Assembly (NCBI GenBank): GCA_050246755.1
Contig: JBFWVL010000001.1
Coordinates: 672,001-736,000 of the forward strand
DNA length: 64,000 bases
Direction: 5' to 3'
Source of the DNA: Bacteriovoracia bacterium
GTDB taxonomy: Bacteria > Bdellovibrionota > UBA1018 > CAIPTA01
A program made the translations under genes and the position numbers. The notes under the pieces were generated by a model. The model was not told where the DNA came from and did no database searches. It worked only from the letters and a program-made list of their open reading frames with translations. Position 1 is the first letter of the stretch. The number at the start of each line of letters is the position of its first letter. Positions 4,232-47,273 of the stretch are shown here, one piece after another.

Positions 4232-4254
4232 TTTAGACCCCTTTTTTGTACCAT

Positions 4255-27530: not shown

Positions 27531-28114
27531 AGCAGCTCTGGATTTTAACCGGCGGAAATGGCTCGGGAAAATCCACCTTCTTCAAAATCATGCTTAAGCC
27601 TCTCGGCGTATCTTTCGTGAACGCCGATATGCTCGCCCTCACGCTAGGCGAGCCCATTACCGATGAGAAAAGCCGCCAGGCCCAAAAAATGGCGCTCGCG
27701 CTATTCCACGAGAAAATTTCCAAAGGCGACAACTTTTGCTTCGAAACCGTTTTCTCTCATCCCTCAAAGTTGGAGCTAATCCGGGAGGCACAGGAATCTG
27801 GATACGAAGTAACGCTCGTCTATATCCACCTCGCCAACGACTCCCTCAATCAAGCGCGGGTATACCAAAGGGTGGCCGAAGGCGGCCATAATGTGCCGGC
27901 CGACAAGATCAAATCTCGTATTCCCCGCACGATGGAAAACGTGCACCTCGCCTTGCCCATGGTTAGAGATGCCGTTCTCTACGACAATTCTTATTCGGAA
28001 TCTAACGGCGGAGCTTTTCAGGAAATCGCGCAAGTCCACCAAGGCACGGTGGTCTCGAGCATAGATCCTCTACCCGCCTGGGCCACAGAAATGCTGGCCG
28101 GGCTTTCTCATTAA
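27527..28114 (+). CDS. Zeta-toxin-like P-loop kinase (COG4185 type)
   Basis: GGNGSGKST, VNAD, ETVFS, RV..GGHNVP, DNS; 4-bp overlap with upstream gene. Confidence 0.85.
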   Translation: MKQLWILTGGNGSGKSTFFKIMLKPLGVSFVNADMLALTLGEPITDEKSRQAQKMALALFHEKISKGDNFCFETVFSHPSKLELIREAQESGYEVTLVYIHLANDSLNQARVYQRVAEGGHNVPADKIKSRIPRTMENVHLALPMVRDAVLYDNSYSESNGGAFQEIAQVHQGTVVSSIDPLPAWATEMLAGLSH

Positions 28115-28801: not shown

Positions 28802-28809
28802 ACTCTATC

Positions 28810-29460: not shown

Positions 29461-29525
29461 AGAGTATTCCTTTCGGAAAGAGTTCACTTACCCCTCTATC
29501 GTCGCATGAATCGAAAAAATTCAAC

Positions 29526-30662: not shown

Positions 30663-31561
30663 AAGTTTTTAAATAATTTTAGGTAGGTTTTCGTGTCCGT
30701 ACCGGGCGAGCTCACGTAAACATTGGAGGAGGTCGCCACGTTATAGTATTGGCTCAGCCCATCGGTGAGATCATATTGCGCCACCGGGGCGCCGCTGCAG
30801 GAGGGACTTCCATAGATAACGATTCCGATGGGAGGGCTCACTCCCAGGCCATTATTTGCGGGGCCCACGGGAATCCTAATCGAAGTATCCGCGCTGGCTC
30901 CGCTTAGGCTCGCGCAGCTGGTAGTGAGGGATTGGTTGGCGATGAACATGGGTAATCCAGGCTGCTTTTCGCCCGCGAATACCCGGATCTTCACGCCGTA
31001 GCTGCTGCTTGTGACGGGCGTGCAGGAGGAAGGATTATTCTCGCAGATCGAAACATGCAGCGTGTCGAAGTCGGTTGCGCTACCGGACTGGTAGCGCGAA
31101 GCCTCCACATTGGAGAACGCGCTGTCGTTACCGAAACTGCAATTCGCTTCGGTAAGGTCCAGCATCACGGTTACATTCGTTCCCGTTAAATTTACGTCGG
31201 CGCCGCCATTGCCAAAGGCGCATCTCGTTTGCCCATTCATCACTCCGCTCGAGCCATCGTTGCTGAACGCGTATACTTTGAAGCTACCGTTCGGCACCAC
31301 AAGGGTCTGCCCCATCGCCTCCGCTTCGCTGGGAAAAGCGAAGGCATTGCCACCACTATTAGAGATACCGTTGCGGGCAAAATAAACCATCAATCCGCCA
31401 TTTTGCGATGCGGACATCTGCATTCCAGGATGGCTGGATTTGAATTGTACGCGGGTATAGTCGTTTTTTAGGCGGCCGAACCTATCGTTCATGCGGCCGC
31501 AAGCCATCACCAGCAGAAATAGCGATAAAAAGACGGCGATCGAAGCGGCGCTTTGTTTCAT
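30659..31561 (-). CDS. Ser/Thr/Gly-rich surface lipoprotein
   Basis: Lipobox VMAC, several Cys, GAGG RBS. Confidence 0.75.
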   Translation of the reverse strand: MKQSAASIAVFLSLFLLVMACGRMNDRFGRLKNDYTRVQFKSSHPGMQMSASQNGGLMVYFARNGISNSGGNAFAFPSEAEAMGQTLVVPNGSFKVYAFSNDGSSGVMNGQTRCAFGNGGADVNLTGTNVTVMLDLTEANCSFGNDSAFSNVEASRYQSGSATDFDTLHVSICENNPSSCTPVTSSSYGVKIRVFAGEKQPGLPMFIANQSLTTSCASLSGASADTSIRIPVGPANNGLGVSPPIGIVIYGSPSCSGAPVAQYDLTDGLSQYYNVATSSNVYVSSPGTDTKTYLKLFKNF

Positions 31562-31624: not shown

Positions 31625-34156
31625 CTATAGCAGGCTAAGCGTATTGCTAAGCGGCAGATCCCGTGAGGAAGAGCCTACGCGCACTTCGAACTGGCCGGCA
31701 TCCACGCGCCAGTCGTGCGTGCCTACGTCGTAGTACGCGAAGGAACGGGCCTCAAGCTTGAGCTTGATACGGCGGGTCTCCCCTGGCTGCAGCTCCACGC
31801 GCTCGAAGCCCTTCAGTTCCTGGAAGGGCCGATCGATACGGGGATTCAGCGCCCGCACGAAGAGCTGGGCCACTTCAGCGCCGGCCCGCTTACCACTATT
31901 GGTCAGATCGAATTCTACTTCCACTTGCGGGCTGGACGCCTTCGCGTCAAGCAGGTTCACGGAGAGGTTCGAGTAACTAAAAGTGGTATAGGAAAGACCG
32001 AACCCGAAGGGAAACAAGGGCTCCACTTTATGCGTATCGAAGTGGCGGTAGCCCACGTAAATGCCTTCCCCGTAGGTAACTTGGTCGGGGTTGCCGTGGT
32101 CTTCGGGATAGTGCCCGAACGCCGAAGCGTCTTCCCAACGCTTGGGAAAGGAAACGGGAAGCTTTCCGGAGAAATTTGTTTTGCCGCGGAGGGCGTCCAC
32201 GATGGCTTGCGAACCTTCTTGGCCGGGGTACCAGGCATGCACCACGGCCTTTACTTCGCCAAGCCAAGGCATCAGCACGGGATTTCCGCCGGTGATTACC
32301 ACGATGGTATTCGGATTAGCTTTAGCCACGGCGCGGATGAGATCATCCTGGCCTTCCGGCAGGCTCATGCTTTCCAGGTCGATAGTTTCACCTTCGTAGT
32401 GGCGCGAGAGGCCGGCGAAGAAAATGGCTACGTCGGAATCCTTGGCGAGACGCACGGCTTCGCGAGGCCCATCGTGATTTTCGGGAGCAAAACCCAACCC
32501 CACGATCGCGGAGTCACGGTTGTCGTAGTACTCAAGGCGGATTTTATAGCTTTTTCCCGCTTCGAGGCGGTAGGGCACGTAATCATTTTGGGCGCCGTGA
32601 TCGGTCCAGTTATCGAGCACCAGCTTATCGTTGATGAAAAGGCGTACGCCGTCGTCGGAACGAACTACGAAGCGGAAGTTTCCGCTATCTTTGGCATTAA
32701 GGTAACCGGTCCATCGCACGGCGAATTTATCGAGCGGCATTCCGTTTCCGGCCGGGTTCCAGCCCCAGTCGAAATTGATGGTGGAATCAACGCGGGTGAA
32801 AACAGGTTTCCCCTTAAATTCCAAGTTGTCGAAATATTCGCCCTTCACGCCGCGCTGGCGCGAATGCGGAGCGAGGCTCCAGAGTTCGCGGGGAACAGCA
32901 TCAAAATCTCCCCGCATGCTTACGCCGCTCTCTTGACGGATTTGCACGTCGGGCATGGCGGCCCGGAAAGCATCCAGCGGCGATAGCTCCTGCGTAGGAT
33001 TCACCATCGAGGAACCGCCCCCGGCGATCCGCGAATGAATAGAACCGGGACCGAGCAAAGCGATTTTCTTCACGCGGCCGGGCTGAAGCGGAAGCACGGG
33101 AATACCGCGTGAACTGGGCTCGTTCTTCAGAAGGACTAAGCTCTGCGCGGCGGCTCTGCGCGCCACGGCCAGATGTTCGGCGCTGCCCACCATTTTGGGA
33201 TCCGGGCGGCCGCGCGTGCCGTCGAATAAACCAGAGGCAAAGATCCCGCGCAAAATGCGGGCCACTTTATCGTTGATCAGCGTTTCGCTTACTTCCCCGT
33301 TCTGCACCGCCTCGAGCAATTTTCCGTCGAAGAAAAGCGCCGTAGGCATTTCGAGATCAAGGCCCGCATTGGCCGCTTTAGCGGTGCTATAAACGGATTC
33401 CCAGTCGGAAACCACGAAGCCCTTGAATCCCCATTTTTCTTTGAGAAGATCGGTGAGCAATTCCTTGTTCTCGGAAGCGTGATGGCCATTCACGAGGTTA
33501 TACGAAGACATCACCGAATACGTGCCGGCATCCACCGCGGTCTGGAACGCGGGCAGATGGATCTCCTGCATGGTGCGCTCGTCGGCGATCACATTGATCG
33601 AATAACGCTTGTGCTCCTGATCGTTGAGCGCGAAGTGTTTGGTGCTAGCCATCACGCCTTCGGCTTGGAGACGGCGCACGTACGTATCCGCGAAACGGGA
33701 AGTTAAGTAAGGATCTTCGCCAAAACTTTCGAAATTGCGTCCGCCGAAAGGATTGCGGCTGATATTGATGCAGGGGCCGAGCAGCATGTCGCGGTTCAAT
33801 GCCCTGGTCTCCACGCCCATAGCCTGCGCCATATCGCCCATCAACGTAGGATTAAAAGTAGCGGCGAGGGAAATAGCGGACGGGAACGCCGTGGCCTGCC
33901 CCATGCGCACCCCGAGCGGCCCGTCGGTCATCTGAATCGAAGGAATGCCGAGACGAGGAATCGGATGCGTTGCGAAGGCACTTTGGTCCCCACCCAGCAT
34001 GGTTACTTTTTCTTCCAGCGTCATCCGGGCAATCAAATCTTGGATTCTGGACTCAATTGGAGCCTGCGTTCTCTTATATAGAGGCGACGAGTGCGCGGCG
34101 TTAGAGGCCGCAAAAAGCATGAAACAAGCGCAACCGATAGCGATCATAGTTCGCAT
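31625..34156 (-). CDS. Secreted GH3 beta-glucosidase with PA14 insert and FnIII domain
   Basis: DGP.G, GRNFESFGEDP, KHF, SDW nucleophile, PA14 SDDG motif, WYPGQEG, PFGFGLSYT. Confidence 0.93.
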   Translation of the reverse strand: MRTMIAIGCACFMLFAASNAAHSSPLYKRTQAPIESRIQDLIARMTLEEKVTMLGGDQSAFATHPIPRLGIPSIQMTDGPLGVRMGQATAFPSAISLAATFNPTLMGDMAQAMGVETRALNRDMLLGPCINISRNPFGGRNFESFGEDPYLTSRFADTYVRRLQAEGVMASTKHFALNDQEHKRYSINVIADERTMQEIHLPAFQTAVDAGTYSVMSSYNLVNGHHASENKELLTDLLKEKWGFKGFVVSDWESVYSTAKAANAGLDLEMPTALFFDGKLLEAVQNGEVSETLINDKVARILRGIFASGLFDGTRGRPDPKMVGSAEHLAVARRAAAQSLVLLKNEPSSRGIPVLPLQPGRVKKIALLGPGSIHSRIAGGGSSMVNPTQELSPLDAFRAAMPDVQIRQESGVSMRGDFDAVPRELWSLAPHSRQRGVKGEYFDNLEFKGKPVFTRVDSTINFDWGWNPAGNGMPLDKFAVRWTGYLNAKDSGNFRFVVRSDDGVRLFINDKLVLDNWTDHGAQNDYVPYRLEAGKSYKIRLEYYDNRDSAIVGLGFAPENHDGPREAVRLAKDSDVAIFFAGLSRHYEGETIDLESMSLPEGQDDLIRAVAKANPNTIVVITGGNPVLMPWLGEVKAVVHAWYPGQEGSQAIVDALRGKTNFSGKLPVSFPKRWEDASAFGHYPEDHGNPDQVTYGEGIYVGYRHFDTHKVEPLFPFGFGLSYTTFSYSNLSVNLLDAKASSPQVEVEFDLTNSGKRAGAEVAQLFVRALNPRIDRPFQELKGFERVELQPGETRRIKLKLEARSFAYYDVGTHDWRVDAGQFEVRVGSSSRDLPLSNTLSLL

Positions 34157-34323
34157 TATAATTCCCCTCAGAATCTTAAGCGAACTGAGTAGACCGAATC
34201 TTATTCGCACTGACAAGGCAAAAGTGACACAAGGGGAATGCCATGGCGCGTTGCACGCGGTCGCAAGCCTTGACCCTCACTCTCTTCCTCGATAGATAGA
34301 TGGCTACTATTGGGAGATCTCAT

Positions 34324-35307
34324 ATGAAAAATTTAGCCATCATTCTCGCTCTTTGCCTCCTTTCGGCACCGGCGCTCGCCGCGGATAAAATCAAGATAGG
34401 CTTCGTACTCTCCACGATGCAGGAAGAGCGCTACCAAAAAGACCAAAAGTTTTTCTCCGAAGAAGCGAAAAAACTGGGTTTCGAGCCCGTGATGGTTTCG
34501 GCCGACAATAATTCCCAGACCCAAACCGCCAAGGTGGAAAACCTTCTTTCGATGGGCGTAAAAGCACTCGTGATTCAGCCGGTGAATTCCCAGGCTGCCG
34601 CCAACCTCGTGAAGCTCGCGCATGAAGATAAAGTTCCGGTGGTGGCCTACGACCGTATGATCACGGATTCTCCGGTGGACTTCTACGTAACCCAGGATTC
34701 CTTCCAGGTGGGCGTACTGCAGGCCGAAGCCGCCGTGAAAGCCACGGGCGGAAAAGGAAATTACGTGATCCTCATGGGCCAGGCCGGGCATTCGGTGGCC
34801 AATGAAATCACCCGCGGGGTGAAATCGGTGCTCGCGAAATACCCGGGCATAAAAATCGTGGTGGAGCGCAGCCACGAAAATTGGAGTTCGGCCCTCGCGA
34901 TGACCACCGTGGAAAACGCCCTCACCCAATATAAAAATAAAATCGACGCCGTAATCGCCAATAATTCGGGGATGGCACAAGGCGCGGTGCAGGCCGTGGC
35001 GGAGCAAGGCCTCTCCGGCAAAGTATTCATCGCCGGCGCCGACGCCGATCTCGTATCGATTAAGAATATCATCGCCGGCAAGCAGCAGTTCGAGGTGCTC
35101 AAAGATATCGCCCCCCTCGCGAAAACCTCCGCGCAGGTGGCCTTCGATCTCGCCACCGGCAAAAAGCCGAAAGCCACCACCACCACGAAGAGCGGAAAAT
35201 ACGAGGTGCCCACCGCGGCCACTCCCGTGTACGCGATCCAAAAAGATAATCTGGAAGAGCGTATTTTCAAGACGGGCTTCCATTCCAAAAAATCCGTAGC
35301 GAACTAG
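34324..35307 (+). CDS. xylF: Sugar ABC transporter substrate-binding protein, XylF-like
   Basis: EERYQKD, VVAYDR, GADAD; signal peptide. Confidence 0.8.
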   Translation: MKNLAIILALCLLSAPALAADKIKIGFVLSTMQEERYQKDQKFFSEEAKKLGFEPVMVSADNNSQTQTAKVENLLSMGVKALVIQPVNSQAAANLVKLAHEDKVPVVAYDRMITDSPVDFYVTQDSFQVGVLQAEAAVKATGGKGNYVILMGQAGHSVANEITRGVKSVLAKYPGIKIVVERSHENWSSALAMTTVENALTQYKNKIDAVIANNSGMAQGAVQAVAEQGLSGKVFIAGADADLVSIKNIIAGKQQFEVLKDIAPLAKTSAQVAFDLATGKKPKATTTTKSGKYEVPTAATPVYAIQKDNLEERIFKTGFHSKKSVAN

Positions 35308-35314
35308 ACGAACC

Positions 35315-36844
35315 GTGGAACTAATCCGGCTCGAAAAAATCACCAAGACATTCCCGGGCGTGCGTGCGCTCGAGGATGTTTCGCTTTCCATCAACGGCGG
35401 CGAAGTGCTGGCGCTCGTGGGGGAAAACGGAGCCGGTAAATCCACGCTGATGAAAGTGCTGAGCGGAAACTACCCGCAGGGAACCTTCACCGGAAAAATA
35501 TTACTCGAAGGAAAGGAAGTTTCCTTCCACTCCCCCGCCGATGCCGAAAAATGCGGGATCGCCATCATTCATCAGGAACTTTCGTCCTTTCTTCACCTCA
35601 CGGTGGCCGAAAATCTTTTCGTGGGACACTGGCCCAGCAAAATGGGCGTGGTCGATTGGGACTCGCTCCGGGAACAGGCGCAAAAATGGCTCGATCTCGT
35701 GGGCGTTCCCTGCCACGTAGACGACCGCATGTGGGATCTCAGCGTGGGCACCCAGCAGATGATCGAGATCGCCAAGGCCCTCGCCCGTAATTCCCGCGTG
35801 CTCATTCTCGACGAGCCCACTTCCGCGCTCAGCACCCAGGAAGTAGAAAGGCTCTTCAATCTACTCAAGCGCCTGCGCTCCGAAGGCAAAGGCCTCGTGT
35901 ATATCAGCCATAAGATGGAAGAGATTTACCAGCTCTGTGACCGCATCACCGTTCTGCGCGACGGGCAAACCGTGCATACCGCCTCCACCAAAGAACTGCC
36001 CGAAGAACAGCTCGTTTCGAAAATGGTGGGCCGCCCCCTGAACCGGCTTTTCCCCGAGGCACCCGAGAGAACTTTGGGCGAGGAAGTGCTGAAGCTGGAA
36101 GATTTCTCCGGCTTCAATTCCATGGGAAAGCATTTATTCGGTCCTGTTTCGCTTTCCCTGCGCAAAGGCGAGATCGTGGGTTTTGCCGGCCTCCTCGGCG
36201 CGGGCCGCACCGAATTGCTTCAGGCCATCTACGGCGATTCCAATACTCATACCACCGGGAGCCTCACCGTCAACGGATCCGCCGTAGCCCTCGGCAGCCC
36301 CCGCGAAGCTCTTTGGCGCAAGCTCGCCTTCGTGGCCGAGGATCGCAAGCGCGACAGCATCTTGCCCGCCCGCTCCCTCGAAGAAAACGTTTCGCTGGCC
36401 CGCCTAGCTTCCGGATCGCTGGCTCGCTGGCTCGATAATTCCGCCGAAGAAAAACGCGCCGATGAATCCCTCAAGCGTTTTGCCACCAAAACCACCGACG
36501 CCCACCAGCTCATCCAGAATCTTTCGGGCGGGAATCAGCAAAAAGTGATCCTCGGCCGCGCCCTGCAAACCTCTCCGGGCATCATCCTGCTCGACGAGCC
36601 TACCCGCGGCGTAGACGTGGGCGCGAAATTTGAAATTTACGAAATTCTCTTCAAGCTCGCCGCCGCCGGCCACGCCCTACTCGTGGTGAGCTCCGATTTG
36701 CTGGAGCTTATGGCCCTCTCCGACCGCATCGTGGTGCTCAGCCAAGGCATCCCGACCGGTGAATTACCTAGAGCCGAATTTTCCCAGACCGAAATCATGA
36801 GACGCGCTATCCAAAAAGTGCCCGCGAAGGAAGTTTCCGCATGA
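35315..36844 (+). CDS. xylG: Sugar ABC transporter ATPase, XylG-like
   Basis: GENGAGKST, LDEPT x2, LSGGNQQKV. Confidence 0.85.
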   Translation: MELIRLEKITKTFPGVRALEDVSLSINGGEVLALVGENGAGKSTLMKVLSGNYPQGTFTGKILLEGKEVSFHSPADAEKCGIAIIHQELSSFLHLTVAENLFVGHWPSKMGVVDWDSLREQAQKWLDLVGVPCHVDDRMWDLSVGTQQMIEIAKALARNSRVLILDEPTSALSTQEVERLFNLLKRLRSEGKGLVYISHKMEEIYQLCDRITVLRDGQTVHTASTKELPEEQLVSKMVGRPLNRLFPEAPERTLGEEVLKLEDFSGFNSMGKHLFGPVSLSLRKGEIVGFAGLLGAGRTELLQAIYGDSNTHTTGSLTVNGSAVALGSPREALWRKLAFVAEDRKRDSILPARSLEENVSLARLASGSLARWLDNSAEEKRADESLKRFATKTTDAHQLIQNLSGGNQQKVILGRALQTSPGIILLDEPTRGVDVGAKFEIYEILFKLAAAGHALLVVSSDLLELMALSDRIVVLSQGIPTGELPRAEFSQTEIMRRAIQKVPAKEVSA

Positions 36845-37926
36845 AGATCAAAGATTTTTTCAGCCGCAACGGAGTATGGATCGGCTTCTTCCTGCTCGTG
36901 ATCGTAATCTCCGCGCTTACCGGCGGCGGCTTTCTCCAGCCGCGTAACCTTACCAACCTTCTCCGCCAAACCTCCATCAACGGTATCCTCGCCGCGGGCA
37001 TGACCCTCGTGATTCTGCTCGGCGGAATCGACCTCTCGATCGGCAGCCTCGTGGCCCTCGCCGGCGTGGCCGTGGGCGTTTCGCAAATCAACTGGGGCTG
37101 GAACGAAGGCCTGAACGGCGCGCTCTTTTCCTTTTTGCTTTCCCTCGGCGTGGGCCTTTCCGCCGGCGTGATCACCGGCGGCCTCGTTTCTATCCTCCGC
37201 ATCGCCCCCTTCGTGATCACCCTCGGCATGATGGTGATCGCCCGTGGCCTCGCGCTCATCTTCTCCAACGGCGCCAGCATCTCGCCCATGGGGGAAAATC
37301 TCGCCCCCCTCGCCGATGCCTACCTCTCGATTCCGCTCACGGGAGCCGCCGTCGCTATTTTTATGGCCGTATTCCTCTACCGCCAGCGCCGCAATCTGGT
37401 GAACGCGATCTTCCCCATCCTCACCTTCTGCTTCCTCGCCTATTCTTTTATTTCCTACAAAGGCCTACCGATGCTCGTGGTTTTCCTCGGGCTCGTACTA
37501 GGCGCGATCTCCTTCGTACTCGGCCAGACCACCTTTGGCCGCTCCGTGTACGCCATTGGTTCCAGCGAGCGTGCCGCCTACTGGGCCGGCGTACCGGTGC
37601 GCCGGGTGATTTGGATCGTGTACGCGATCATGGGATTGCTCGCGGGCCTCGCGGGCATGCTGCTCACTGTGCGCCTGAACGGCGCAGATCCGAACGCGGG
37701 TCAGTTATTTGAGTTGGATGCGATTGCGGCCGTGGTGATCGGCGGCACCAGCCTCAAGGGCGGCGTGGGCACGATCATGGGTAGCTTCATCGGCGCCCTC
37801 ACGATCGCGACTCTCAATAATGGAATGGATTTGCTCGGCGTGCCGAGCTTCTACCAGATGGTATTCAAGGGCTTGATCATCGTGATCGCCGTGGCGCTCG
37901 ATCGCACGCAGCGCCAGACGGCGTAG
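36841..37926 (+). CDS. xylH: Sugar ABC transporter permease, XylH-like
   Basis: GGIDLSIGS, ELDAIAAVVIGGTSL.GG. Confidence 0.85.
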   Translation: MKIKDFFSRNGVWIGFFLLVIVISALTGGGFLQPRNLTNLLRQTSINGILAAGMTLVILLGGIDLSIGSLVALAGVAVGVSQINWGWNEGLNGALFSFLLSLGVGLSAGVITGGLVSILRIAPFVITLGMMVIARGLALIFSNGASISPMGENLAPLADAYLSIPLTGAAVAIFMAVFLYRQRRNLVNAIFPILTFCFLAYSFISYKGLPMLVVFLGLVLGAISFVLGQTTFGRSVYAIGSSERAAYWAGVPVRRVIWIVYAIMGLLAGLAGMLLTVRLNGADPNAGQLFELDAIAAVVIGGTSLKGGVGTIMGSFIGALTIATLNNGMDLLGVPSFYQMVFKGLIIVIAVALDRTQRQTA

Positions 37927-37934
37927 TCTAAAAC

Positions 37935-38258
37935 TTACTCGCTGATGGGAGGATGCACGCGAGATTTCTCGGCGTCGATCGCTTCGCGCTCTCGGGCGAT
38001 TCTGCCCTCTTCGATCAGCGCGTCGCGTTTCACGGCGTATTCTTCTTCGTCGCGCTCCATCTTCTCGGGCAGGTTGGAAACCAATTCATCGGCCAAAGTT
38101 TCCCGAACGTCTTCGGCCACCACTTTTCCATCGCATACCACCTGGTAGAGGCCGCGGCCGGCATGGTAACCGGCGGCGTATTTAACGCAGTCGGCGGCGT
38201 GCGCCTGGGAAATAAATCCGGTGAGGAAGAGAGCGGAAAGCATGATTACATTTTTCAT
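37935..38258 (-). CDS. Small secreted hypothetical protein
   Basis: Signal peptide AHA, GGAG RBS. Confidence 0.65.
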   Translation of the reverse strand: MKNVIMLSALFLTGFISQAHAADCVKYAAGYHAGRGLYQVVCDGKVVAEDVRETLADELVSNLPEKMERDEEEYAVKRDALIEEGRIAREREAIDAEKSRVHPPISE

Positions 38259-38278
38259 GGAGTACTCCGTTTTAAAAA

Positions 38279-38557
38279 TTAGAGCGGGGAATCGATGGAA
38301 TCGTCGTTAGCTGTATTTTCGGAAGGCGATACGTAACCGACTACGGGCTCTTTGGCGGTGGGCTTTTCCTCGGCATTGGCCGGAGCTTCTTTCTGCCACC
38401 AACTAAAATTATAGAGCTGAGGGGCGCTTGCGCTTTCGGTGCAGTAGACGCCGCTATAGCCGAATCCCGAGCCACCCGCGGAAACGCATTCGGCGTGGGC
38501 GCTGGTAACGAAAAAAAATGGGGCCAAAATCAACAGGGCGAAAATTGGAGTTTTCAT
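38279..38557 (-). CDS. Small secreted hypothetical protein
   Basis: Signal peptide AHA, Cys pair. Confidence 0.65.
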   Translation of the reverse strand: MKTPIFALLILAPFFFVTSAHAECVSAGGSGFGYSGVYCTESASAPQLYNFSWWQKEAPANAEEKPTAKEPVVGYVSPSENTANDDSIDSPL

Positions 38558-38568
38558 GCCTAGACGGA

Positions 38569-38585
38569 TGCTAGGCCTATGCCCG
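38569..38585 (-). promoter_or_regulatory. Sigma54-like promoter
   Basis: GG-CATAGGCCTA-GC spacing; IHF-like GATCAAGCACTTA at 38589-38601; enhancer-like sites at 38609 and 38628. Confidence 0.6.
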
Positions 38586-38664
38586 GGCTAAGTGCTTGAT
38601 CGGATGAATGTCTTGGCGGAGACAGGGTGCCCAGGGTTTAGACGGAAAAGGTCAGAATCTACAG

Positions 38665-40149
38665 CTATCTCTTCCACACGAAAGTAACCGCAAATTTTCC
38701 CGGCAGCTCGTAGTCGAAATATTCTTTGCCGATCGCCACGCGGAACCTCTTCGCATCATCGGTGGAATTATGGGCCACGAAAGCGATCGTTCCATCTTTG
38801 TTGAGAAAGCCGGTGGCGATCAGGCCCTCGGGATCTCCTTCCACTTCTAGGCGGTAGGATTCGGGAGTGATGAAGCGGCTCACCTGCGCGAGAGCATAGA
38901 ATTCACCGTTATAGGTTACCTCGGGCATTTCCCCAGAGAAATCCATCTTCACCATCCCGCGGCAGGTGGTGCAGCCCCCATTGGGAATCGTCGGATCATC
39001 CTTGATTCCATTCTGCGGGCCATTTTTTTCGTCGAGGCAGAGGTTCCAGCCGAGGGCGCCGGTGGTGCCGGTGGGGCCCATGCGTGCGGCGCCGAGGGAC
39101 TGGTTATCCAGCCACCACCCGAAATCGTTGATGGGATGGGATTTAGTTCCATCGAGGTAGCTCTCGGTACCAGTACACTCGGTTTGCACAAGAGCCATCT
39201 CCGGATAGGCATTGAACGTATCGAACATATTATACTTCGAGCCCCAGTAGCAGTGGTAGGCCACGCCGGCGGTATACTTGCGGGCGGCGTCGTACTCAAG
39301 AATCTTGTTGGAGTCTTCGCTCAGGCTCCAGTTGTGATCGTGGGAAAAAATCCGCAGCGGAAGCTTCGCTTGCTCGAGGATGGGGCCGAGGTAATCGCCG
39401 ATGAAGCGACTCTGGTCTTTGGGCGACATATACATCGAGGGATAGCCCTTGGTGGCGTAGAGCGGCTCGTTTTGAATGGTGAGGCTGTCTACCGGCATTC
39501 CCTTTTTTTGCAGCTCGCGGATCACGCGCACGAAATATTTGGCGTAATCCTCATACCTTTCGGGGTCCAGCCAGCCGTCGTGGAGGCTCTTGTTGGGCTT
39601 CATCCAGGCCGGCGCGGTCCAGGGAGAAATCATTAGGTGCAAATGGGGATTGATCCGGATGGCTTCCCGGAGCAGGGAAAAACTTTTATCGTCGCGCGAG
39701 AGATCGAGGTGCTTGAATTCAGGATCGGGCTCGGCGTTCGGGGAGTCGTTGTAAGTATAGCTGCCTTTTTTCCCATCGGCGAAATCGGAGGCCCCGAGCG
39801 GAAGACGCAGGTAATCGAAGCCCGCACCGTTTTTTTTGCTGAATATTTTCTCCATCACCTCACGGCGCTGCTTGCGGGGAAGCTTGAGGAGGTTGATCGC
39901 GCAGCTCTCGGTGAAGTTGGCGCCGTAGCCATCCATTTTCTGGTGGAGCATCTCGGGAATTAATTTGAAGGTGGCCGCGGCGCCACCTTCTTTGAGCCGA
40001 GAAAATTTCAGGGTTCTTTTTTCCACGAGCGGCACGAGCTTGCCGTCGATCACTTCCGTCTGAAAAACTTTGATTTTGGCACTCTTGGCGAGCGCGGGCG
40101 AGCCGAAGCAAAGAAGAGCCAAAAAAGTGAGAAAAGCCGCGTTACGCAT
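38665..40149 (-). CDS. Secreted GH30 glycoside hydrolase (beta-1,6-glucanase-like)
   Basis: GASDF, SPWTAPAWMK, QNEP acid/base, DHNW, YHCY, QTEC nucleophile. Confidence 0.9.
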   Translation of the reverse strand: MRNAAFLTFLALLCFGSPALAKSAKIKVFQTEVIDGKLVPLVEKRTLKFSRLKEGGAAATFKLIPEMLHQKMDGYGANFTESCAINLLKLPRKQRREVMEKIFSKKNGAGFDYLRLPLGASDFADGKKGSYTYNDSPNAEPDPEFKHLDLSRDDKSFSLLREAIRINPHLHLMISPWTAPAWMKPNKSLHDGWLDPERYEDYAKYFVRVIRELQKKGMPVDSLTIQNEPLYATKGYPSMYMSPKDQSRFIGDYLGPILEQAKLPLRIFSHDHNWSLSEDSNKILEYDAARKYTAGVAYHCYWGSKYNMFDTFNAYPEMALVQTECTGTESYLDGTKSHPINDFGWWLDNQSLGAARMGPTGTTGALGWNLCLDEKNGPQNGIKDDPTIPNGGCTTCRGMVKMDFSGEMPEVTYNGEFYALAQVSRFITPESYRLEVEGDPEGLIATGFLNKDGTIAFVAHNSTDDAKRFRVAIGKEYFDYELPGKFAVTFVWKR

Positions 40150-40153
40150 GGAG

Positions 40154-40603
40154 CTAGTGAGGAAGGCCCAGCATCTTCTCTTTCGGAAGTATCACGCTGC
40201 AGGCGGCCTCCCCTTTAGGCAAGCCGATCGAGGCGAGAACCTCCTCGTTCCCGGCATTTTCTCCATCCACGGCTTTCACTTTCCCCGCCGCGCAACGCAT
40301 CTTGCCTGTGGGTTGTTTCTCGTAAATATGCGCGTAAGGACCTTCGCATTTTTTTAGGTCAATTCCGGTCATCCGGGTGAAGGTGGCGCGATCGAGGCCC
40401 ATCGCGGGCTTAGCAGACACGGCGAAAGTAAAGTTGATCGCGACTTCCCTGGTAATCTTTTCCGAAATCGGCGCTGCATCCGTGCCGAGATAGCCCTGGA
40501 AGATTTCGTGGCCGGTGGCATCTTTGCAAGTGAGGAGCGCATCGGCGCGGGCGCCGGCGGAAACTATGAACAGGAGAGCCGCTAATCCGGTGATCATTTT
40601 CAT
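40154..40603 (-). CDS. Secreted hypothetical protein (4 Cys)
   Basis: Signal peptide ARA, GAGG RBS. Confidence 0.7.
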   Translation of the reverse strand: MKMITGLAALLFIVSAGARADALLTCKDATGHEIFQGYLGTDAAPISEKITREVAINFTFAVSAKPAMGLDRATFTRMTGIDLKKCEGPYAHIYEKQPTGKMRCAAGKVKAVDGENAGNEEVLASIGLPKGEAACSVILPKEKMLGLPH

Positions 40604-40642
40604 TTCTTTTCCTCTTTCGCCTTCTCTTGATTCTAGGTTTTC

Positions 40643-42316
40643 TTATTGCTTATCGGCTGGCTGCAATTCGGAGACTTCCGTCTCGTCCGACGAATCCTCG
40701 TCTGCGGCTTGGCCGGGCACGCCCCACACGAACGTGGTGGCGCCGCGAGCGGGTACCTCGTAAACAAGTGCACGGCAATCCGGCGTTTTCGCACGGAACT
40801 TTATAGGTTCCTTCTTGAGGTTTTCTACCACCATCACGATGCTGCCATCAGGACGCTGAAAGGCCGTGGATTGGATTTCGCCGTCCGTTTTTCCTGCCAG
40901 CTCGATGCGTTTGGTACCGGGCACGAGGAAACGGCTCACTTGCGCGAGCGCGTAGAATTCCGGATTGTATTTTACTTTGGCGTCTTTTTCCGAAAAATCC
41001 ATTTCCACGAGGCCACGGCAATTGGTGCAGCCGGAATATCCTTTGCCCCAGTTCACCGGGCCATGCTTATCGTCGAGGCACAAATTCCAGGCAATAGAGC
41101 CGGTAGTTCCCATGTTCACGGCGCCCACCGATTGGGTATCAAGCCACCAGTGAAAATCCCCGGCCTTCGCGTAGCCAGCGTCGGATCCCGAGCACTCGGT
41201 TTGGAAAAGCTCGAGGTCGGGATGGTGGTTCACCGTATCCCACATGCCCCATTTTTCGCCCCCGTAGCAATGGTACGCGATTCCTTTTAGGTATTTCTTC
41301 ACGCCCTTTACGGCGGCGATCGGATCCGCGTCGCGCTCGCTTTGGCTCCAGTTATGATCGTGGCCGAAGATGCGCTTGCTGATGCCGTGCTTCTCGAGCG
41401 TAGGCCCGAGAAAATCTCGAATAAACTCTCCCTGCTCTTCCGGCTTCATCCCCATTGAGGGCACGCCGTAGCTATCGTAGGCGGGCTCGTTCTGGATCGT
41501 GAGGCTGTCCACGGGTATCCCGCGCTTTTGGTATTCCTTAATCACCTTCACGAAATAGTTCGCGTAGGTCTGGCGGTACTGCGGCAGTAGTTTTCCGCCG
41601 TTGATCTGGCCGGAATCTTTCATCCAGGACGGTGCTGACCAAGGAGTGATCATCACCTTCAAGTTGGGATTAATCTTGCGGGCCTCGCGGATGAGCTCGA
41701 AAGATTTTTCGTCGCGGCTCATATCGAAATTCTTGAAGGTGGGATCCGGTTTATTATTCTTGGTTTCGTTATAGGTATAATTGCCCTTTTTTGCGTCGGC
41801 GAAATCGGTGCCGCCCATGGGCAAGCGAATGAGATTGAAATTGGCGCCGTTAGGCCCGAACGTTTTCTGCATGAAATCGTTCTTAAGCTTTTTCGGCAAT
41901 CGCTTGATATGCATCGTGCAGGCTTCGGTGAGGGCGGCGCCGAACCCGTACATCGTTTGAAACTTTTTGTCGGGATTGATCTCCACGGTAGGGAAATCTC
42001 CCACGGCGGCGGCCTCGGGACCGAATTTCACGTGACCCTTGCTCACGAGCGGCTGCACTTCGTCGCCGTGAATTTCGGTTTCGAATACTTGCACGTTACT
42101 GCTGGCGGCTTTACTGAGCGTGGTGGAAATGATTTTTTCCATGGTGCTCAAATGCTTGCCGGCGAGCGTGACGCCGTGGCAGCCCGGACCGGGGCAGACC
42201 ACCTGTTCTCCTGCATTTTTATTTTGCGAACAGGTATCGGCCGCCGCGATTTGGGCGCCGAGCGAAAGAAGAGTAAATAAAGGGAACGACAGAATTAGTG
42301 GCTTTGCTCTCATCAT
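40643..42316 (-). CDS. Secreted GH30 glycoside hydrolase, paralog with Cys-rich N-terminal extension
   Basis: GTDF, PWSAPSWMK, QNEP, DHNW, YHCY, QTEC. Confidence 0.9.
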   Translation of the reverse strand: MMRAKPLILSFPLFTLLSLGAQIAAADTCSQNKNAGEQVVCPGPGCHGVTLAGKHLSTMEKIISTTLSKAASSNVQVFETEIHGDEVQPLVSKGHVKFGPEAAAVGDFPTVEINPDKKFQTMYGFGAALTEACTMHIKRLPKKLKNDFMQKTFGPNGANFNLIRLPMGGTDFADAKKGNYTYNETKNNKPDPTFKNFDMSRDEKSFELIREARKINPNLKVMITPWSAPSWMKDSGQINGGKLLPQYRQTYANYFVKVIKEYQKRGIPVDSLTIQNEPAYDSYGVPSMGMKPEEQGEFIRDFLGPTLEKHGISKRIFGHDHNWSQSERDADPIAAVKGVKKYLKGIAYHCYGGEKWGMWDTVNHHPDLELFQTECSGSDAGYAKAGDFHWWLDTQSVGAVNMGTTGSIAWNLCLDDKHGPVNWGKGYSGCTNCRGLVEMDFSEKDAKVKYNPEFYALAQVSRFLVPGTKRIELAGKTDGEIQSTAFQRPDGSIVMVVENLKKEPIKFRAKTPDCRALVYEVPARGATTFVWGVPGQAADEDSSDETEVSELQPADKQ

Positions 42317-42530
42317 GAAAGTCCATCCGTGAGGCCTTCACTGGCCTAGGTTTCTACCAACTAAGATTGTAGGATTGGAGCGCCTACCCAGCAACGATTT
42401 TTCTCAGGGCAAACCTGTGAAATCTATCGGCTCTTTAGATTATACCGGACCGCCCTATTCCTGTTGGCGAGTGTCCATTCTTCCAATAGAATCTAGAAAG
42501 CGCGGAAACGTGTTTGAAATTGAGGTTTTC

Positions 42531-45398
42531 ATGAGGAAAAACGCTGTGACCCTTCTTCCCTGGCTGCTCGGAACGGCCTTTCTCCTAGGCCCGTTTGGAG
42601 GGGCAAAAGCCGAAAGCACCCTGCCTATCTACAAAGACCGTAGCGCGGGAACCGAAGCGAGAATCGATGACTTGATCTCCCGCCTGACGCTCGACGAAAA
42701 GCTCGACCTCCTCGGCGGAACCGGATTCGGCTCTAAGGAAAACAAGCGCCTCGGTATCCCTTCTATTTTGATGATCGATGGTCCTCAAGGCATACGCGGG
42801 CCACGAGCCACCGCTTTTCCCTCTTCGATCACGATGGTATCTACCTGGAATCCAGAGCTGATGCGCAAGGTTTCCCGCGGAATCGGCCGCGAAGTGCGGG
42901 CCTACGGGAAAAACATGATTCTCGGCCCCTGCGTTACGCTCTACCGTGTGCCCCAAAGCGGAAGGAATTATGAGTGCTTCGGCGAAGATCCCTACCTCAA
43001 CTCGCGTTTTTCCTCGGCCTATGTAAAAGGGACCGCCGATGTAAAAGTGCTGAGCTCCACGAAGCATTTTCTGCTCAATAATCAGGAAATAAACCGAAAC
43101 TGGGTGGACATGCACGCCGACGAACGCTCGATCCACGAACTCGAGCTCCCGGCCTTTGAGGCCGCGGTGAAAGCGGGCACGGAGTCCATTATGTCTTCCT
43201 ATAATTTGGTCGACGGAGTGCACGCCGCCGAAAATAAAGAATTGCTCACCGGCCTGATCAAAGAAGGCCTCGGCTTCAAGGGATTCATCGTTTCCGACTG
43301 GGAATCCACCTACGATGGGGTGAAATCCGCGAACGCGGGCCTCGACCTCGAGATGCCCTACGGACTGCACATGGGAGCTCCGATCAAAGAAGCCGTGGAA
43401 AAAGGCGCGGTGCCGATTTCACTCGTGAACGACAAGATCCGCCGAATGATGCGCGCGCTCTACAAAATCGGCGCGATGGACGAGAAGCCAGTCGCGAATA
43501 AAACCGACCTCAACAGCAAAGAGAATCAGCAGGTTGCGCTCGAGGGCGCCCGCGAAGCGATCGTGCTCTTGAAAAACGAAAAATCGGCGCTGCCGGTGCG
43601 GCCGGCGGAAATCAAGACCATCGCGGTGATCGGGCCGAACGCCGACACGATCCGCCACCATGCTGGCGGCAGCGGGCAAGTGAGTCCCTATAAAAACGTG
43701 AGCGTGCTCGACGGGATCAAAAAGCAATTCGGCCCGAACGTGAAGGTGGTGTACGCGCAAGGCGTGAAGGTTCCCGATCACTGGGAGCTGATCAACGAGA
43801 AACTCGTGAGCTCGCGCAACGCCAAGGGACAAACGGTGGGCGGATTTCAAGTAGAATACTTCGATAACGAAGAACTTAAAGGCAAGCCCATTATCAAACG
43901 CACCGAGCCCGATATCCAGATATGGAATACCGCCACCCCCGATCCGAAACTGCAGATGGGAAAATATTCCGCCCGCTGGACCGGAAGACTGCGAGTGGAA
44001 AAAGCCGGCCCGGTAACGTTCGACATGGGCGTAACCTGGCGGGCCTACCGCGTGATCGTGGATGGCAAAGTGGTGCAGGACTATTTCGATCTACGCGGCG
44101 ATGGCGGCGATAACCGCGTGAAGATCGAGCACCTCGATGCCGGCCTGCACGATATCAAGATCGAGTACCGCAACGAAGCCGACAATTTTAAATTCTCTCT
44201 CGCCTGGGCCCAGCCTGAGGCCGACATCGCTGAAGCCGTGGCGCTTGCCAAAAAGGCCGATGCCGCCGTGGTGGTGGTGGGCACCTCCAATGATTCCGAA
44301 GGCGAGTCTATCGACCGCAAAAGTCTTTATCTTCCCGGCGATCAGGACCAGCTGATCCTCGAAGTAGCCAAAGCCAATCCTCGCACCACCGTGATCGTGA
44401 ATACCGGCGGCCCCGTGTTGATGGATAAGTGGAAAGACAAAGTTCCCGCCATCCTGCAGGCCTGGTTTCCAGGCCAAGAAGGGGGAACGGCGCTGGCTGA
44501 AATCGTGAGCGGGAAGGTGAATCCTTCCGGAAAGCTTCCCGTAACGCTGCCGAAAAAACTCGAAGATTCGCCCTCCGCCACCTACTACCACGGCCAAAGC
44601 GACAAAATCGACTACGGCAAAGTAGGGGTACTCGAAGGTTATCGAGGTTACGACGCGAAAAATATCGAGCCCGAGTTCGCGTTCGGCCACGGTCTTTCCT
44701 ATACCACTTTTCAGTATTCCGACCTGAAAGTAGATGCCGTGAGCGACAATCAAAAGGACCCTAAAGTAAAAGTGACGATGAAGCTCACCAATAGCGGAAA
44801 AGTAGCGGGGGCCGAGGCGGTGCAGCTCTACGTGGGCGAGCAAAGTCCGGAGGTGGAGCGCGCGCCCAAAGAGCTCAAGGGCTTCGAAAAAATCTCTCTG
44901 CGCCCCGGCGAATCGCGCATGGTCTCCTTCACGCTCGACGCGGAAGCCTTCCGCTATTGGAACGACAAAACCCACGCTTGGACCATCAAGCCCGGAAACT
45001 TCTCTATCTTGGTGGGCTCTTCCTCGCGCGATATCCGCCTGAAATCAGCGGTGACCATTAAACCTCCGCAGGCCGGGACGAAATCGGCCGAGCTGGGAAG
45101 CTGCAAAGAAGAACTACGCGCGTTGCTGAAGCAAAAAGAAAAGGTCACGCAGCGGCTACGGGATTTTTCCGATGCTTCCTGGTTCGCCGAGATCCGCTCC
45201 AAGCTTCACCTGGAAAGCGACTCGCTAGATCCCGCGGCTCCGCAAAGCCTAGCCGCCTGCAAAACGCAGCTAGCGCAGGCCGCCGACGCGCTGGCGAATA
45301 TGCAGAATGTAACGAAAGAATTCGCGAAGAAATTCGACTCGCGCCTTTATAAAGTGAATGCCGAAGCCGGCGCCGGCCAATCCCAAAGCGCCAACTAG
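42531..45398 (+). CDS. Secreted GH3 beta-glucosidase with PA14-like insert and C-terminal coiled-coil extension
   Basis: GRNYECFGEDP, KHF, SDW, WFPGQEG, FGHGLSYT; about 110 extra residues ending QSAN. Confidence 0.92.
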   Translation: MRKNAVTLLPWLLGTAFLLGPFGGAKAESTLPIYKDRSAGTEARIDDLISRLTLDEKLDLLGGTGFGSKENKRLGIPSILMIDGPQGIRGPRATAFPSSITMVSTWNPELMRKVSRGIGREVRAYGKNMILGPCVTLYRVPQSGRNYECFGEDPYLNSRFSSAYVKGTADVKVLSSTKHFLLNNQEINRNWVDMHADERSIHELELPAFEAAVKAGTESIMSSYNLVDGVHAAENKELLTGLIKEGLGFKGFIVSDWESTYDGVKSANAGLDLEMPYGLHMGAPIKEAVEKGAVPISLVNDKIRRMMRALYKIGAMDEKPVANKTDLNSKENQQVALEGAREAIVLLKNEKSALPVRPAEIKTIAVIGPNADTIRHHAGGSGQVSPYKNVSVLDGIKKQFGPNVKVVYAQGVKVPDHWELINEKLVSSRNAKGQTVGGFQVEYFDNEELKGKPIIKRTEPDIQIWNTATPDPKLQMGKYSARWTGRLRVEKAGPVTFDMGVTWRAYRVIVDGKVVQDYFDLRGDGGDNRVKIEHLDAGLHDIKIEYRNEADNFKFSLAWAQPEADIAEAVALAKKADAAVVVVGTSNDSEGESIDRKSLYLPGDQDQLILEVAKANPRTTVIVNTGGPVLMDKWKDKVPAILQAWFPGQEGGTALAEIVSGKVNPSGKLPVTLPKKLEDSPSATYYHGQSDKIDYGKVGVLEGYRGYDAKNIEPEFAFGHGLSYTTFQYSDLKVDAVSDNQKDPKVKVTMKLTNSGKVAGAEAVQLYVGEQSPEVERAPKELKGFEKISLRPGESRMVSFTLDAEAFRYWNDKTHAWTIKPGNFSILVGSSSRDIRLKSAVTIKPPQAGTKSAELGSCKEELRALLKQKEKVTQRLRDFSDASWFAEIRSKLHLESDSLDPAAPQSLAACKTQLAQAADALANMQNVTKEFAKKFDSRLYKVNAEAGAGQSQSAN

Positions 45399-46059: not shown

Positions 46060-46190
46060 GGGGAAATCCTACCCTGGGCGGCAAATTTCCGCCATTCGTT
46101 TACCTGCGGCAGTCTGCTGTCCTGACAAGGCGCATAGAAACCGCTACATATACTAGAGGCTTTATATACCGTTTGTTTGAAAGGAAATAT

Positions 46191-47273
46191 ATGCGGATCG
46201 CTTTGGTATCGCCTCTCTTCGAAAGCGTGCCCCCCCAATTCTACGGCGGAACCGAAAGAGTCGTAGCCTACTTGTCGGACGCGCTGATGAACTTAGGACA
46301 CGAGGTGACTTTATTCGCCAGCGGAGATTCTCGCACCGGGGCCCGGCTGCGTGCACCCTGCCGCCGCGCTCTACGCCTCGACAAAAGCTGCCGGGATCCA
46401 ATTCCGCATCATGTGCTCGAGCTGGCCATGGTGGAAGCCGAAGCGGGCGATTTCGATATCATTCATTTTCATACCGATCTACTGCACCTGCCGCTAGCGC
46501 GGAGATTAAATATTCCTAGCGTAACCACACTGCACGGGCGACTCGACCTTCCCGACATTAAGAATCTTTACTACGAGTTCGACGACTTACCGCTGGTTTC
46601 TATCTCCGACCACCAGCGCTTGCCGCTGGCTTTCGCGAACTGGATAAGAACCGTTCATCACGGCTTGCCGCTGGAACTGCTGAATTTTCACCCCCGGGCG
46701 GGAAACTACCTCGCGTTTCTGGGCCGAATATCCAAGGAAAAGCGCGTAGACCGGGCCATCGAAATTGCCCGGATCGCCGGAAAGAAAATCAAGATCGCCG
46801 CTAAGATCGATAAGGCCGACGAATCCTACTACCAAGGCGTGGCGCACTTTCTCCGGCAACCCCACGTGGAATTTATCGGTGAAATCAACGAGGGCCAAAA
46901 AAGCGAATTCCTCGGCAATGCCGAAGCGCTACTTTTCCCGATTGACTGGCCGGAACCATTTGGGCTCGTGATGATCGAGGCCATGGCCACGGGCACGCCG
47001 GTGATCGCCTACGGAGAAGGCTCGGTTCCCGAGATCGTTCGCGAGAGGGAAAATGGATTTATCGTGCGCTCCGTGGAAGAGGCGGCGGCGGCGGTGCATA
47101 CCTTAAAGGGAATCGATCGCGCCGGCTGCCGCGCTTCCTTCGAAAAACATTTTTCCGCCGAGAGAATGGCTCGCGATTATCTTTCGGTTTACGAAAGCCT
47201 CATCGAACAACGCGGCGGCCAGGTGATCCCGCTTACGGCCCCATCACAGCCAGCGGGCTGGAGAGCGGGATGA
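46191..47273 (+). CDS. Glycosyltransferase family 4
   Basis: VPPQFYGGTER, GRISKEK, EPFGLVMIE. Confidence 0.93.
   Translation: MRIALVSPLFESVPPQFYGGTERVVAYLSDALMNLGHEVTLFASGDSRTGARLRAPCRRALRLDKSCRDPIPHHVLELAMVEAEAGDFDIIHFHTDLLHLPLARRLNIPSVTTLHGRLDLPDIKNLYYEFDDLPLVSISDHQRLPLAFANWIRTVHHGLPLELLNFHPRAGNYLAFLGRISKEKRVDRAIEIARIAGKKIKIAAKIDKADESYYQGVAHFLRQPHVEFIGEINEGQKSEFLGNAEALLFPIDWPEPFGLVMIEAMATGTPVIAYGEGSVPEIVRERENGFIVRSVEEAAAAVHTLKGIDRAGCRASFEKHFSAERMARDYLSVYESLIEQRGGQVIPLTAPSQPAGWRAG

Follow-up and report, generated by a model that had tools for sequence, protein, structure and literature searches.

Here we describe a ten-gene locus at positions 31625-45398 of a 64,000-nucleotide stretch of bacterial DNA (hereafter the window, C1:672001-736000 of a 3.55-Mb genome assembled in 10 contigs and 95.7% complete), which we regard, with moderate confidence, as serving the breakdown of beta-1,6-linked glucan or gentio-oligosaccharides independently of TonB. 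The locus encodes two enzymes of glycoside hydrolase (GH) family 30 (GH30a and GH30b), two GH3 enzymes carrying a PA14 domain (GH3a and GH3b), an ATP-binding cassette (ABC) importer of the CUT2 family and three small secreted orphans (orfA, orfB and orfC). In the proposed pathway, the two Sec-exported, GH30_3-like endo-glucanases would cut the glucan chain, and the two Sec-exported GH3-PA14 exo-beta-glucosidases would trim the pieces to glucose. The importer, which appears to belong to a phylum-wide XylF-like subfamily, would then take up the monosaccharide, which is most likely glucose, and a ROK-type kinase, glucose-6-phosphate isomerase (PGI) and phosphofructokinase (PFK) would pass it to glycolysis. 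The substrate linkage, glucose as the cargo, the compartment of the enzymes and the source of the glucan are the parts of this pathway that we infer; most simply, the source would be environmental fungal or oomycete debris. The individual parts are familiar, and it is their combination and their host that are unusual.

The GH30 enzymes are 48% identical to each other, and Pfam assigns a TIM barrel and a beta-sandwich to each. In NCBIfam, both score highest with the BT3312 endo-1,6-beta-glucanase model NF053856 (280 bits for GH30a and 272 bits for GH30b, with near-full model coverage), and the XynC xylanase model reaches only 29 and 27 bits, respectively. The best solved chain is 5ngk/5ngl (221 and 207 bits), which a 2026 preprint cites as the BT3312 structure, followed by SrfJ (139 and 149 bits) and human GBA (98 and 148 bits). 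Residues of BT3312 were mapped via alignment to the solved chain, the numbering of which is that of the paper minus 2; their roles in catalysis and at the subsites are those described by Temple et al. (PMC5481569), and invariance was counted over seven aligned GH30 proteins of the lineage. The catalytic glutamates of GH30a, in the motifs NEP (E228) and TEC (E324), align to Glu238 and Glu339 of BT3312; D122, W177, N227 and W368 match the subsite residues Asp131, Trp179, Asn237 and Trp377; and H272 and N273 match His281 and Asn282 of the positive subsites. The loop-2 CxxC pair of BT3312 (Cys393-Cys396) is likewise matched at the sequence level, and all of these positions are invariant in 7/7 sequences. 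According to the 2026 preprint, the CxxC disulfide, found also in fungal GH30_3 enzymes, stiffens loop 2 and closes the U-shaped cleft, and two loops, this disulfide and Asp131 are the features shared by fungal and bacterial GH30_3. Asp286 of BT3312 is unmatched in the GH30a alignment. By every sequence feature tested except the curated model score, both enzymes thus appear to be GH30_3-like members of a divergent clade of their own. An earlier note on this DNA, made from the letters alone, had described the NEP/TE catalytic residues as intact and pointed to the breakdown of beta-1,6-glucan by GH30_3 and GH3 enzymes in Bacteroides; the model scores, solved chains and mapped residues agree with this and speak for the GH30_3 (BT3312) type over xylanases.

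To place these enzymes among their relatives, a tree of 85 GH30 sequences was built from the seven proteins of the lineage genomes and 78 from a scan of genome contigs, in which the 80 top-scoring of 594 confirmed relatives were retained; it was made by a quick method, with support from the Shimodaira-Hasegawa-like approximate likelihood ratio test only, rooted at the midpoint, and with characterised enzymes left out. A branch with 100% support separates the seven lineage proteins and one bin labelled Bdellovibrionales from 77 sequences of ten other phyla, and identity between the lineage proteins and the closest ones from elsewhere is about 35%. GH30a groups as sister with the enzyme of the sister species G003 (support 91) and GH30b stands outside this pair (support 98), so the duplication that gave rise to GH30a and GH30b would be older than the split from that species. 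The genome holds a third GH30 gene (C1:955945-957150, L089), the product of which is more distant (36-39% identical) and falls outside the GH30a/GH30b clade. This third gene adjoins a type I phosphodiesterase gene and lies near M23 and SLT-LysM wall hydrolase genes.

The same comparisons bear on a different assignment, in which the GH30 proteins would be glucosylceramidase-like beta-glucosidases and the locus would harvest glucose from glycolipids or from plant or microbial glucosides. This assignment, which we judge very unlikely, draws on the name 'glucosylceramidase' given to 5ngk by its depositors, on SrfJ and human GBA being the next solved relatives, on the lack of a match to Asn244 of BT3312, and on the GYP stretch that follows the NEP motif in GH30a, a motif also of GBA. 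However, BT3312 outscores the GBA-type chains by 60 to 120 bits, the CxxC pair of the cleft-closing loop 2 is present and invariant, and the two adjoining GH3 exo-glucosidases are the usual partners of an endo-glucanase.

GH3a and GH3b are 43.5% identical and have the same architecture, with GH3 N- and C-terminal domains, a PA14 domain inside the C-terminal domain and an Fn3-like tail. Both contain KHF and either GFVVSDW (as in GH3a) or GFIVSDW, SDW being the GH3 nucleophile motif. The ten best solved relatives of each protein are named either beta-glucosidase or plainly GH3 (339-507 bits for GH3a, 7ms2 scoring 506, and 353-467 bits for GH3b), and the PA14-bearing 3abz and 4i3g are among the best; the first xylosidase among solved relatives scores 329 bits for GH3a and 370 bits for GH3b. 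In NCBIfam, an arabinopyranosidase model and xylosidase models are among the best matches, none of which reaches its cut-off. We consider both proteins candidate enzymes of the beta-glucosidase type, with a linkage preference that is not readable from sequence; the earlier suggestion that they are glucosidases is in line with the ranking of their solved relatives. An orthologue of GH3a in the sister species G003 is 58% identical and is encoded beside a GH30 gene. In GH3b, a C-terminal extension of about 115 residues (45030-45398, residues ~890-1007) belongs to no family; it contains two Cys and an abundance of Lys, Glu and Ala.

The importer consists of a binding protein, a fused double ATPase and a permease, and neither the binding protein nor the permease has a paralogue in the genome. 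The binding protein matches XylF best, with 256 bits against an NCBIfam cut-off of 504 and 232 bits to the Protein Data Bank entry 3m9w, and is 41% identical to XylF of E. coli. For the double ATPase, the best NCBIfam models are XylG, AraG and GguA, all below cut-off (570 vs 699 bits). Eight XylF residues hydrogen-bond xylose, as quoted from the XylF structure paper in PMC8753852. Six of the eight are kept here (Arg16, Asp90, Arg91, Asn196, Asp222 and Lys242, the last in 3/15 lineage sequences), and the other two, Asp135 and Asn137, are replaced by His164 and Val166 in all 15 lineage sequences aligned, which also have Tyr in place of Trp17 (15/15). The Asp-Asn-Asn motif lost in this way is kept by XylF, 4ywh, 4wwh, 4rxu and the multi-sugar receptor ChvE, and the binding protein is thus a member of a distinct XylF-like subfamily. 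As a side observation, the ABC ATPase is 40-61% identical among relatives and the binding protein 57-78%, the reverse of the usual pattern.

The sugar genes elsewhere in the genome are consistent with glucose as the cargo. No xylA was found in the genome by searches with the xylose isomerase profile and E. coli XylA, and no xylB either, the sole FGGY kinase being GlpK (643 bits, above its cut-off). Genes for PGI and PFK are present, as is a ROK protein, the best model of which is ROK glucokinase at 163 bits, under the cut-off of 260. Because xylA and xylB were not found and the pocket is changed, the importer is probably not a xylose system, and the possibility raised by the earlier note, of a xylose-specific binding protein with xylAB elsewhere, finds no support in this genome. 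With it, the reading of the whole locus as one for xylan and xylose, made of GH30 xylanases, GH3 xylosidases and a xylose importer, comes close to being refuted: the best named importer models are XylF and XylG, and xylosidase models are among the GH3 matches, but the XynC model scores a mere 27 to 29 bits, the isomerase and kinase genes are missing from the genome as searched, XylF Asp135 and Asn137 are replaced, and, among the solved GH3 relatives, ten glucosidases come ahead of the first xylosidase.

Several points weigh against a beta-1,6-glucan locus. Both GH30 proteins lie far below the equivalog cut-off of 700 bits of NF053856, and they form part of a clade apart, so their activity could differ from that of BT3312. 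Neither Asn244 nor Trp345, the -2 platform residue of BT3312, has a counterpart in GH30a, where K234 and E329 take their places; the first of these differences weighs little, since, according to the 2026 preprint, Asn244 has no equivalent in the fungal GH30_3 enzymes either. Loss of the Asp-x-Asn motif leaves the ligand of the binding protein not readable from its pocket. How the polymer would reach the Sec-exported enzymes without an outer-membrane importer is a gap in the model. No regulator is encoded at the locus itself. Finally, neither GH18 nor GH16 was found in the genome, so the organism does not seem equipped to open intact fungal walls.

The ten genes are arranged in four units, and every open reading frame (ORF) was confirmed at its coordinates (Table 1). 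GH3a stands alone on the minus strand, divergent from the plus-strand importer operon; the minus-strand unit of GH30b, orfC, GH30a, orfB and orfA, with gaps of 39, 4, 107 and 20 bases, ends only 8 bases from the permease stop, and GH3b is transcribed from the plus strand, divergent from GH30b. The two exported GH3-PA14 enzymes, the two exported GH30 enzymes, the importer and the three secreted Cys-containing orphans listed in the earlier note were all recovered in place.

Table 1. Genes of the locus, in window coordinates, with strand and family evidence
Gene product	Position	Strand	Evidence
GH3a, exported GH3-PA14 exo-beta-glucosidase candidate, Fn3-like tail	31625..34216	-	Glyco_hydro_3 4e-50, GH3_C 3.5e-55, PA14 7.3e-32
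CUT2 importer periplasmic binding protein, XylF-like fold, changed pocket	34300..35307	+	Peripla_BP_4
Importer fused double ABC ATPase	35315..36844	+	two ABC_tran stretches
Importer permease	36841..37926	+	BPD_transp_2
orfA, 107-aa secreted orphan, 2 Cys	37935..38258	-	no Pfam/NCBIfam family
orfB, 92-aa secreted orphan, 2 Cys, low-complexity tail	38279..38557	-	no Pfam/NCBIfam family
GH30a, exported GH30_3-like endo-beta-1,6-glucanase candidate	38665..40149	-	Glyco_hydro_30 3.9e-34, GH30C
orfC, 149-aa secreted protein, 4 Cys, between both GH30 genes	40154..40603	-	no Pfam/NCBIfam family
GH30b, exported GH30_3-like paralogue, Cys-rich N-terminal extension	40643..42316	-	Glyco_hydro_30 3.9e-49, GH30C
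GH3b, exported GH3-PA14 paralogue	42375..45398	+	same four domains as GH3a, PA14 8e-11

Signal-peptide-like N-termini are present on all nine non-cytoplasmic products. Internal starts are likely for GH3a (ATG 34156) and GH3b (ATG 42531), each inside the listed ORF, and perhaps for the binding protein (ATG 34324); a GAGG- or GGGAG-type site precedes each of them and a signal peptide follows directly. Codon-use scores mark all ten genes as coding in their frames, the lowest being that of orfB (0.32), which is nevertheless the best of its six frames. A plus-strand ORF at 37953-38282, the mirror of orfA, has no family match and scores 0.51 vs 0.78 for the minus frame of orfA. Codon use of the six long genes and of the three orphans is typical of the genome, and the GH30 proteins group with the others of the lineage; recent transfer of the locus is therefore not favoured. 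Contigs of X1 and X2 come from the same strain, with long pieces showing 0 differing letters, and so offer no variation on which selection on orfA or orfB could be gauged. Parts of the stretch are present in four sequencing runs from three studies, among them a landfill-metagenome run from which the DNA may derive; no RNA run is among the runs listed as containing the stretch.

Regulation and uptake across the outer membrane were considered at the scale of the window and of the genome. The earlier statement that the window lacks a regulator holds near the locus and fails for the window as a whole, which contains a response regulator and a histidine kinase (3692-5550) as well as GAF proteins. 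Promoter-like sites (6 found vs 9.1 expected) and terminator-like sites (34 found vs 27.8 expected) were not above chance. A 19-nt direct repeat, TCAGAATCTTAAGCGAACT, occurs with variants (74-79% identity) at 34168-34186, 34193-34211 and 38652-38670; two copies, with a 25-nt distance between them, immediately precede the probable start of GH3a, and the third is at the GH30a stop, ahead of orfB. This repeat may be an operator common to two units, or may have arisen by chance. As the earlier note had it, the locus is without SusCD or a TonB receptor: a scan of 56 window ORFs, 45 of them in the flanks, gave no TonB_dep_Rec domain, SusD not being searched separately, and the two TonB-dependent receptors of the whole genome are both encoded away from the locus.

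The distribution of the importer and that of the GH30 enzymes were compared across the phylum. The binding protein is present in 36 of the 127 genomes of the class (E up to 1e-20) and, at 53-75% identity, in 66 of 401 phylum genomes, evenly drawn (E up to 1e-60); by family, the counts range from 23/34 and 10/14 in some to 1/100 and 1/53 in the two largest. GH30 occurs in 4 of the 401 genomes and in 4 of 41 close relatives, all within the class. The GH30/GH3 genes and the importer are joined only here so far. A view of the lineage as making little use of sugars is weakened by the presence of the same importer in 66/401 genomes. Among the 78 GH30 loci of other phyla, many of them cut by contig ends, GH3 was found in 19 and a homologue of this binding protein in none, with one locus encoding a CUT2 ATPase and permease. 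No account of such a locus was found in searches of the literature on Bdellovibrio or Bdellovibrionota glycosidases, sugar transport and glycolysis.

Importer neighbourhoods were examined in 27 contexts from relatives (8 + 19). The importer lies mostly alone among housekeeping genes, with a glycoside hydrolase within 6 kb in 6/27 contexts and a glucose-releasing enzyme beside it in three, namely GH15 in G076 and G014 and GH1 in G102. The GH15 gene is directly downstream of the importer both in G076, where its product scores 554 bits with the glucan 1,4-alpha-glucosidase model, and in G014, where the binding protein is only 36-38% identical. A GH113-deacetylase protein is encoded near the importer in three genomes of one genus. 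The sister species G003 has the importer between the genes for Lon and two CNNM proteins, and its GH3-PA14 and GH30 genes form a convergent pair on a contig other than that of the importer; in the studied genome, DksA, Lon and CNNM are encoded next to each other on contig 7, separated by about 160 bases that hold no importer. Compared with the importer of G003, that of G035, although from a different family, is slightly more similar to the one studied here (ATPase 52% and 61% identical, respectively).

Other neighbours of the importer were noted in passing. A small cyclic-nucleotide-binding, Crp/Fnr-like gene adjoins it in 9/27 contexts (L112, L113, L119, L120, L123, L124, L127, L128 and L130) and is a candidate regulator; none is encoded at the locus in the window. 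Split transketolase-like genes lie beside it in L121, L123, L124 and L127, as do a zinc alcohol dehydrogenase gene (L121, L127) and a major facilitator superfamily transporter gene (L121, L124). Such neighbours hint that in those genomes the importer may serve a sugar other than glucose.

The genes that flank the locus would fit another role for the glycosidases, namely the trimming or recycling of the cell's own envelope glycan or exopolysaccharide, as by the hydrolases of polysaccharide-synthesis clusters. A gene for an O-antigen-ligase-like Wzy_C protein (29526-30662) and a lipoprotein gene beside it lie on one flank, co-directional and closely spaced with GH3a, and genes for a PAP2 protein, a family 4 glycosyltransferase (GT4) and a debranching-enzyme-like protein lie on the other. 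Elsewhere, a GH30 gene of G036 (L087) is found within a polysaccharide-synthesis cluster, among nucleotidyl transferase, epimerase, GT2, pyruvyl transferase and NeuB genes, and both the GH30 genes of G030 and the third copy of the studied genome are near sugar-nucleotide and glycosyltransferase genes. Yet the G036 enzyme and this third copy fall outside the clade of GH30a, GH30b and the G003 enzyme; the GH3-GH30 pair of G003 has no Wzy_C or glycosyltransferase neighbour, its Wzy_C homologue being on another contig; the position of a sugar importer amid the enzyme genes speaks for the product being taken up; and no candidate beta-glucan synthase is encoded at the locus. On this evidence we hold a role in envelope turnover to be unlikely.

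Several features of these surroundings are recorded here for completeness. Four co-directional, closely spaced genes at 28121-31561, downstream of GH3a, encode a 300-aa lipoprotein-like protein, the Wzy_C protein, the gene of which overlaps that of the former by 4 bases, and two family-less secreted proteins (225 and 226 aa); they may be co-transcribed with GH3a. Next to them, at 27527-28114, is the gene for a 195-aa protein with Zeta-toxin and AAA_33 kinase-like domains. On the other side, at 46173-49441, the GT4 gene overlaps the start of a gene for a 723-aa protein with GDE_N_bis and MGH1-like glycoside hydrolase domains and no NCBIfam match. Assemblies of the genus are fragmented and divergent, with Wzy_C homologues that are 32-36% identical. 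In G030 (L088), two tandem GH30 genes follow genes for a histidine kinase and a cyclic-nucleotide-binding protein.

The host lineage is most probably Bdellovibrionota, and the names of its homologues agree with the phylum assumed earlier. Named homologues of its tryptophanyl-tRNA synthetase (TrpRS) are Bdellovibrionota bacterium (84, 81 and 81%), Oligoflexia bacterium (71%), and Halobacteriovoraceae and Bacteriovorax (63%), and one partial homologue is labelled Proteobacteria; at an identity of at least 71%, every named relative is an uncultured bin, and cultured predator genera appear only at 63%. Predation is an assumption for this lineage. It underlies a further explanation, that of the earlier note, in which the same enzymes would act on prey glucans, such as periplasmic osmoregulated or cyclic beta-1,3;1,6-glucans, after secretion into or onto the prey, and the glucose released would be imported. 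The phylum itself favours such a role, and the presence of only Sec signals on the enzymes and of just two TonB receptors in the genome would be in keeping with enzymes that work within a compartment of the prey. The genome also encodes HMG-CoA (3-hydroxy-3-methylglutaryl-coenzyme A) reductase, and the mevalonate route is a genomic trait of predatory bacteria. However, no cultured predator is close, as the 63% TrpRS identity of Bacteriovorax and Halobacteriovoraceae indicates, and GH30, with 4/401 phylum genomes, is rarer than would be expected for a core tool of predation. In the periplasmic glucans common among enterobacteria, beta-1,6 linkages are known only as single branches, which fits poorly with the subsite needs of BT3312-type enzymes. 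Each of the subsites -2, -1 and +1 of such enzymes has to be filled by a beta-1,6-linked sugar (PMC5481569). We therefore regard feeding on prey glucans as rather improbable, and continue to favour a beta-1,6-glucan locus, most simply with an environmental source.

The three secreted orphans have no similarity to one another or to the neighbouring secreted proteins. For orfC, six database homologues were found (52-91% identity, one of them named Bdellovibrionota bacterium), and a seven-row alignment revealed four invariant Cys (C26, C86, C104 and C135) and several further invariant motifs. Its family profile matched 1 of the 127 class genomes, the window's own, and a scan of metagenome contigs with the orfC alignment gave no relative. 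The AlphaFold2 model from the seven-row alignment has no confident fold (mean predicted local distance difference test score, pLDDT, of 39.5), and the ESM Atlas offered only sub-threshold matches (best 0.81, own model pLDDT 0.39). The protein represents a genuine, if narrow, family. The product of orfA has a single homologue, identical at 100/107 residues, with four of the seven changes in the signal peptide, and orfB retrieved only its own cluster and three weak matches to long repetitive proteins among 1.84 billion representatives. The idea put forward earlier, that the orphans are glucan-binding proteins, is neither strengthened nor weakened by these results; orfC lacks a confident fold, and orfA and orfB are nearly unique.

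Comparison with known systems illustrates how the locus combines familiar parts. The 1,6-beta-glucan polysaccharide utilization locus of Bacteroides thetaiotaomicron is BT3309-BT3314 (PMC5481569). Like it, our locus pairs an endo-acting GH30_3-type enzyme with a GH3 beta-glucosidase that would finish the products to glucose, and its GH30 enzymes share with BT3312 the catalytic pair, the -1 subsite and the Cys pair of the loop-2 disulfide. Unlike it, our locus lacks SusC/SusD, a protein for glycan binding at the surface and the regulator SusR, a CUT2 ABC importer of the monosaccharide type is predicted to serve for uptake, GH30 and GH3 are both duplicated, both GH3 enzymes carry PA14, and three secreted orphans are present. 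The importer resembles E. coli XylFGH (3m9w, 3ma0) in its single operon for a permease, a double ATPase and a binding protein, but differs in the replacement of the pocket residues Asp135, Asn137 and Trp17, in the lack of xylAB and xylR, and in its linkage to glucose-releasing enzymes in three relatives. With KmBglI (3abz) and the Streptomyces enzyme 4i3g, the GH3 proteins share the SDW motif and a PA14 domain inside the C-terminal domain followed by an Fn3-like tail; in contrast to these, they are exported bacterial enzymes of a glucanase locus, and GH3b adds its family-less C-terminal residues. FlGlu30 of Flavobacterium is described as a secreted bacterial GH30 acting on fungal beta-1,6-glucan, a single antifungal enzyme (PMC11319602), whereas the enzymes reported here belong to an importer-linked locus; this likeness is one of description.

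The usual view of Bdellovibrionota is one of obligate hunters, sustained by protein and nucleic acid from their prey. A bolder scenario, which we find doubtful on present evidence, is that the importer with its rebuilt XylF-type pocket, present in many uncultured Bdellovibrionota families, makes sugar uptake an ordinary and overlooked trait of the phylum, here joined to lineage-specific secreted beta-1,6-glucanases, beta-glucosidases and a four-Cys protein in a Sus- and TonB-free way of living on fungal, oomycete or bacterial beta-glucan. If true, this would mean a shift from hunting bacteria to scavenging glycans or feeding on fungi. The locus suggests a route by which Gram-negative bacteria other than Bacteroidota might exploit beta-1,6-glucan in the absence of SusCD, and the XylF-like subfamily, with His/Val for Asp/Asn, makes a case for studying shifts in the specificity of binding proteins. 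An importer in about one-sixth of the sampled genomes, together with one full glucan-to-glucose locus, would question the picture of the obligate hunter for the uncultured bulk of the phylum.

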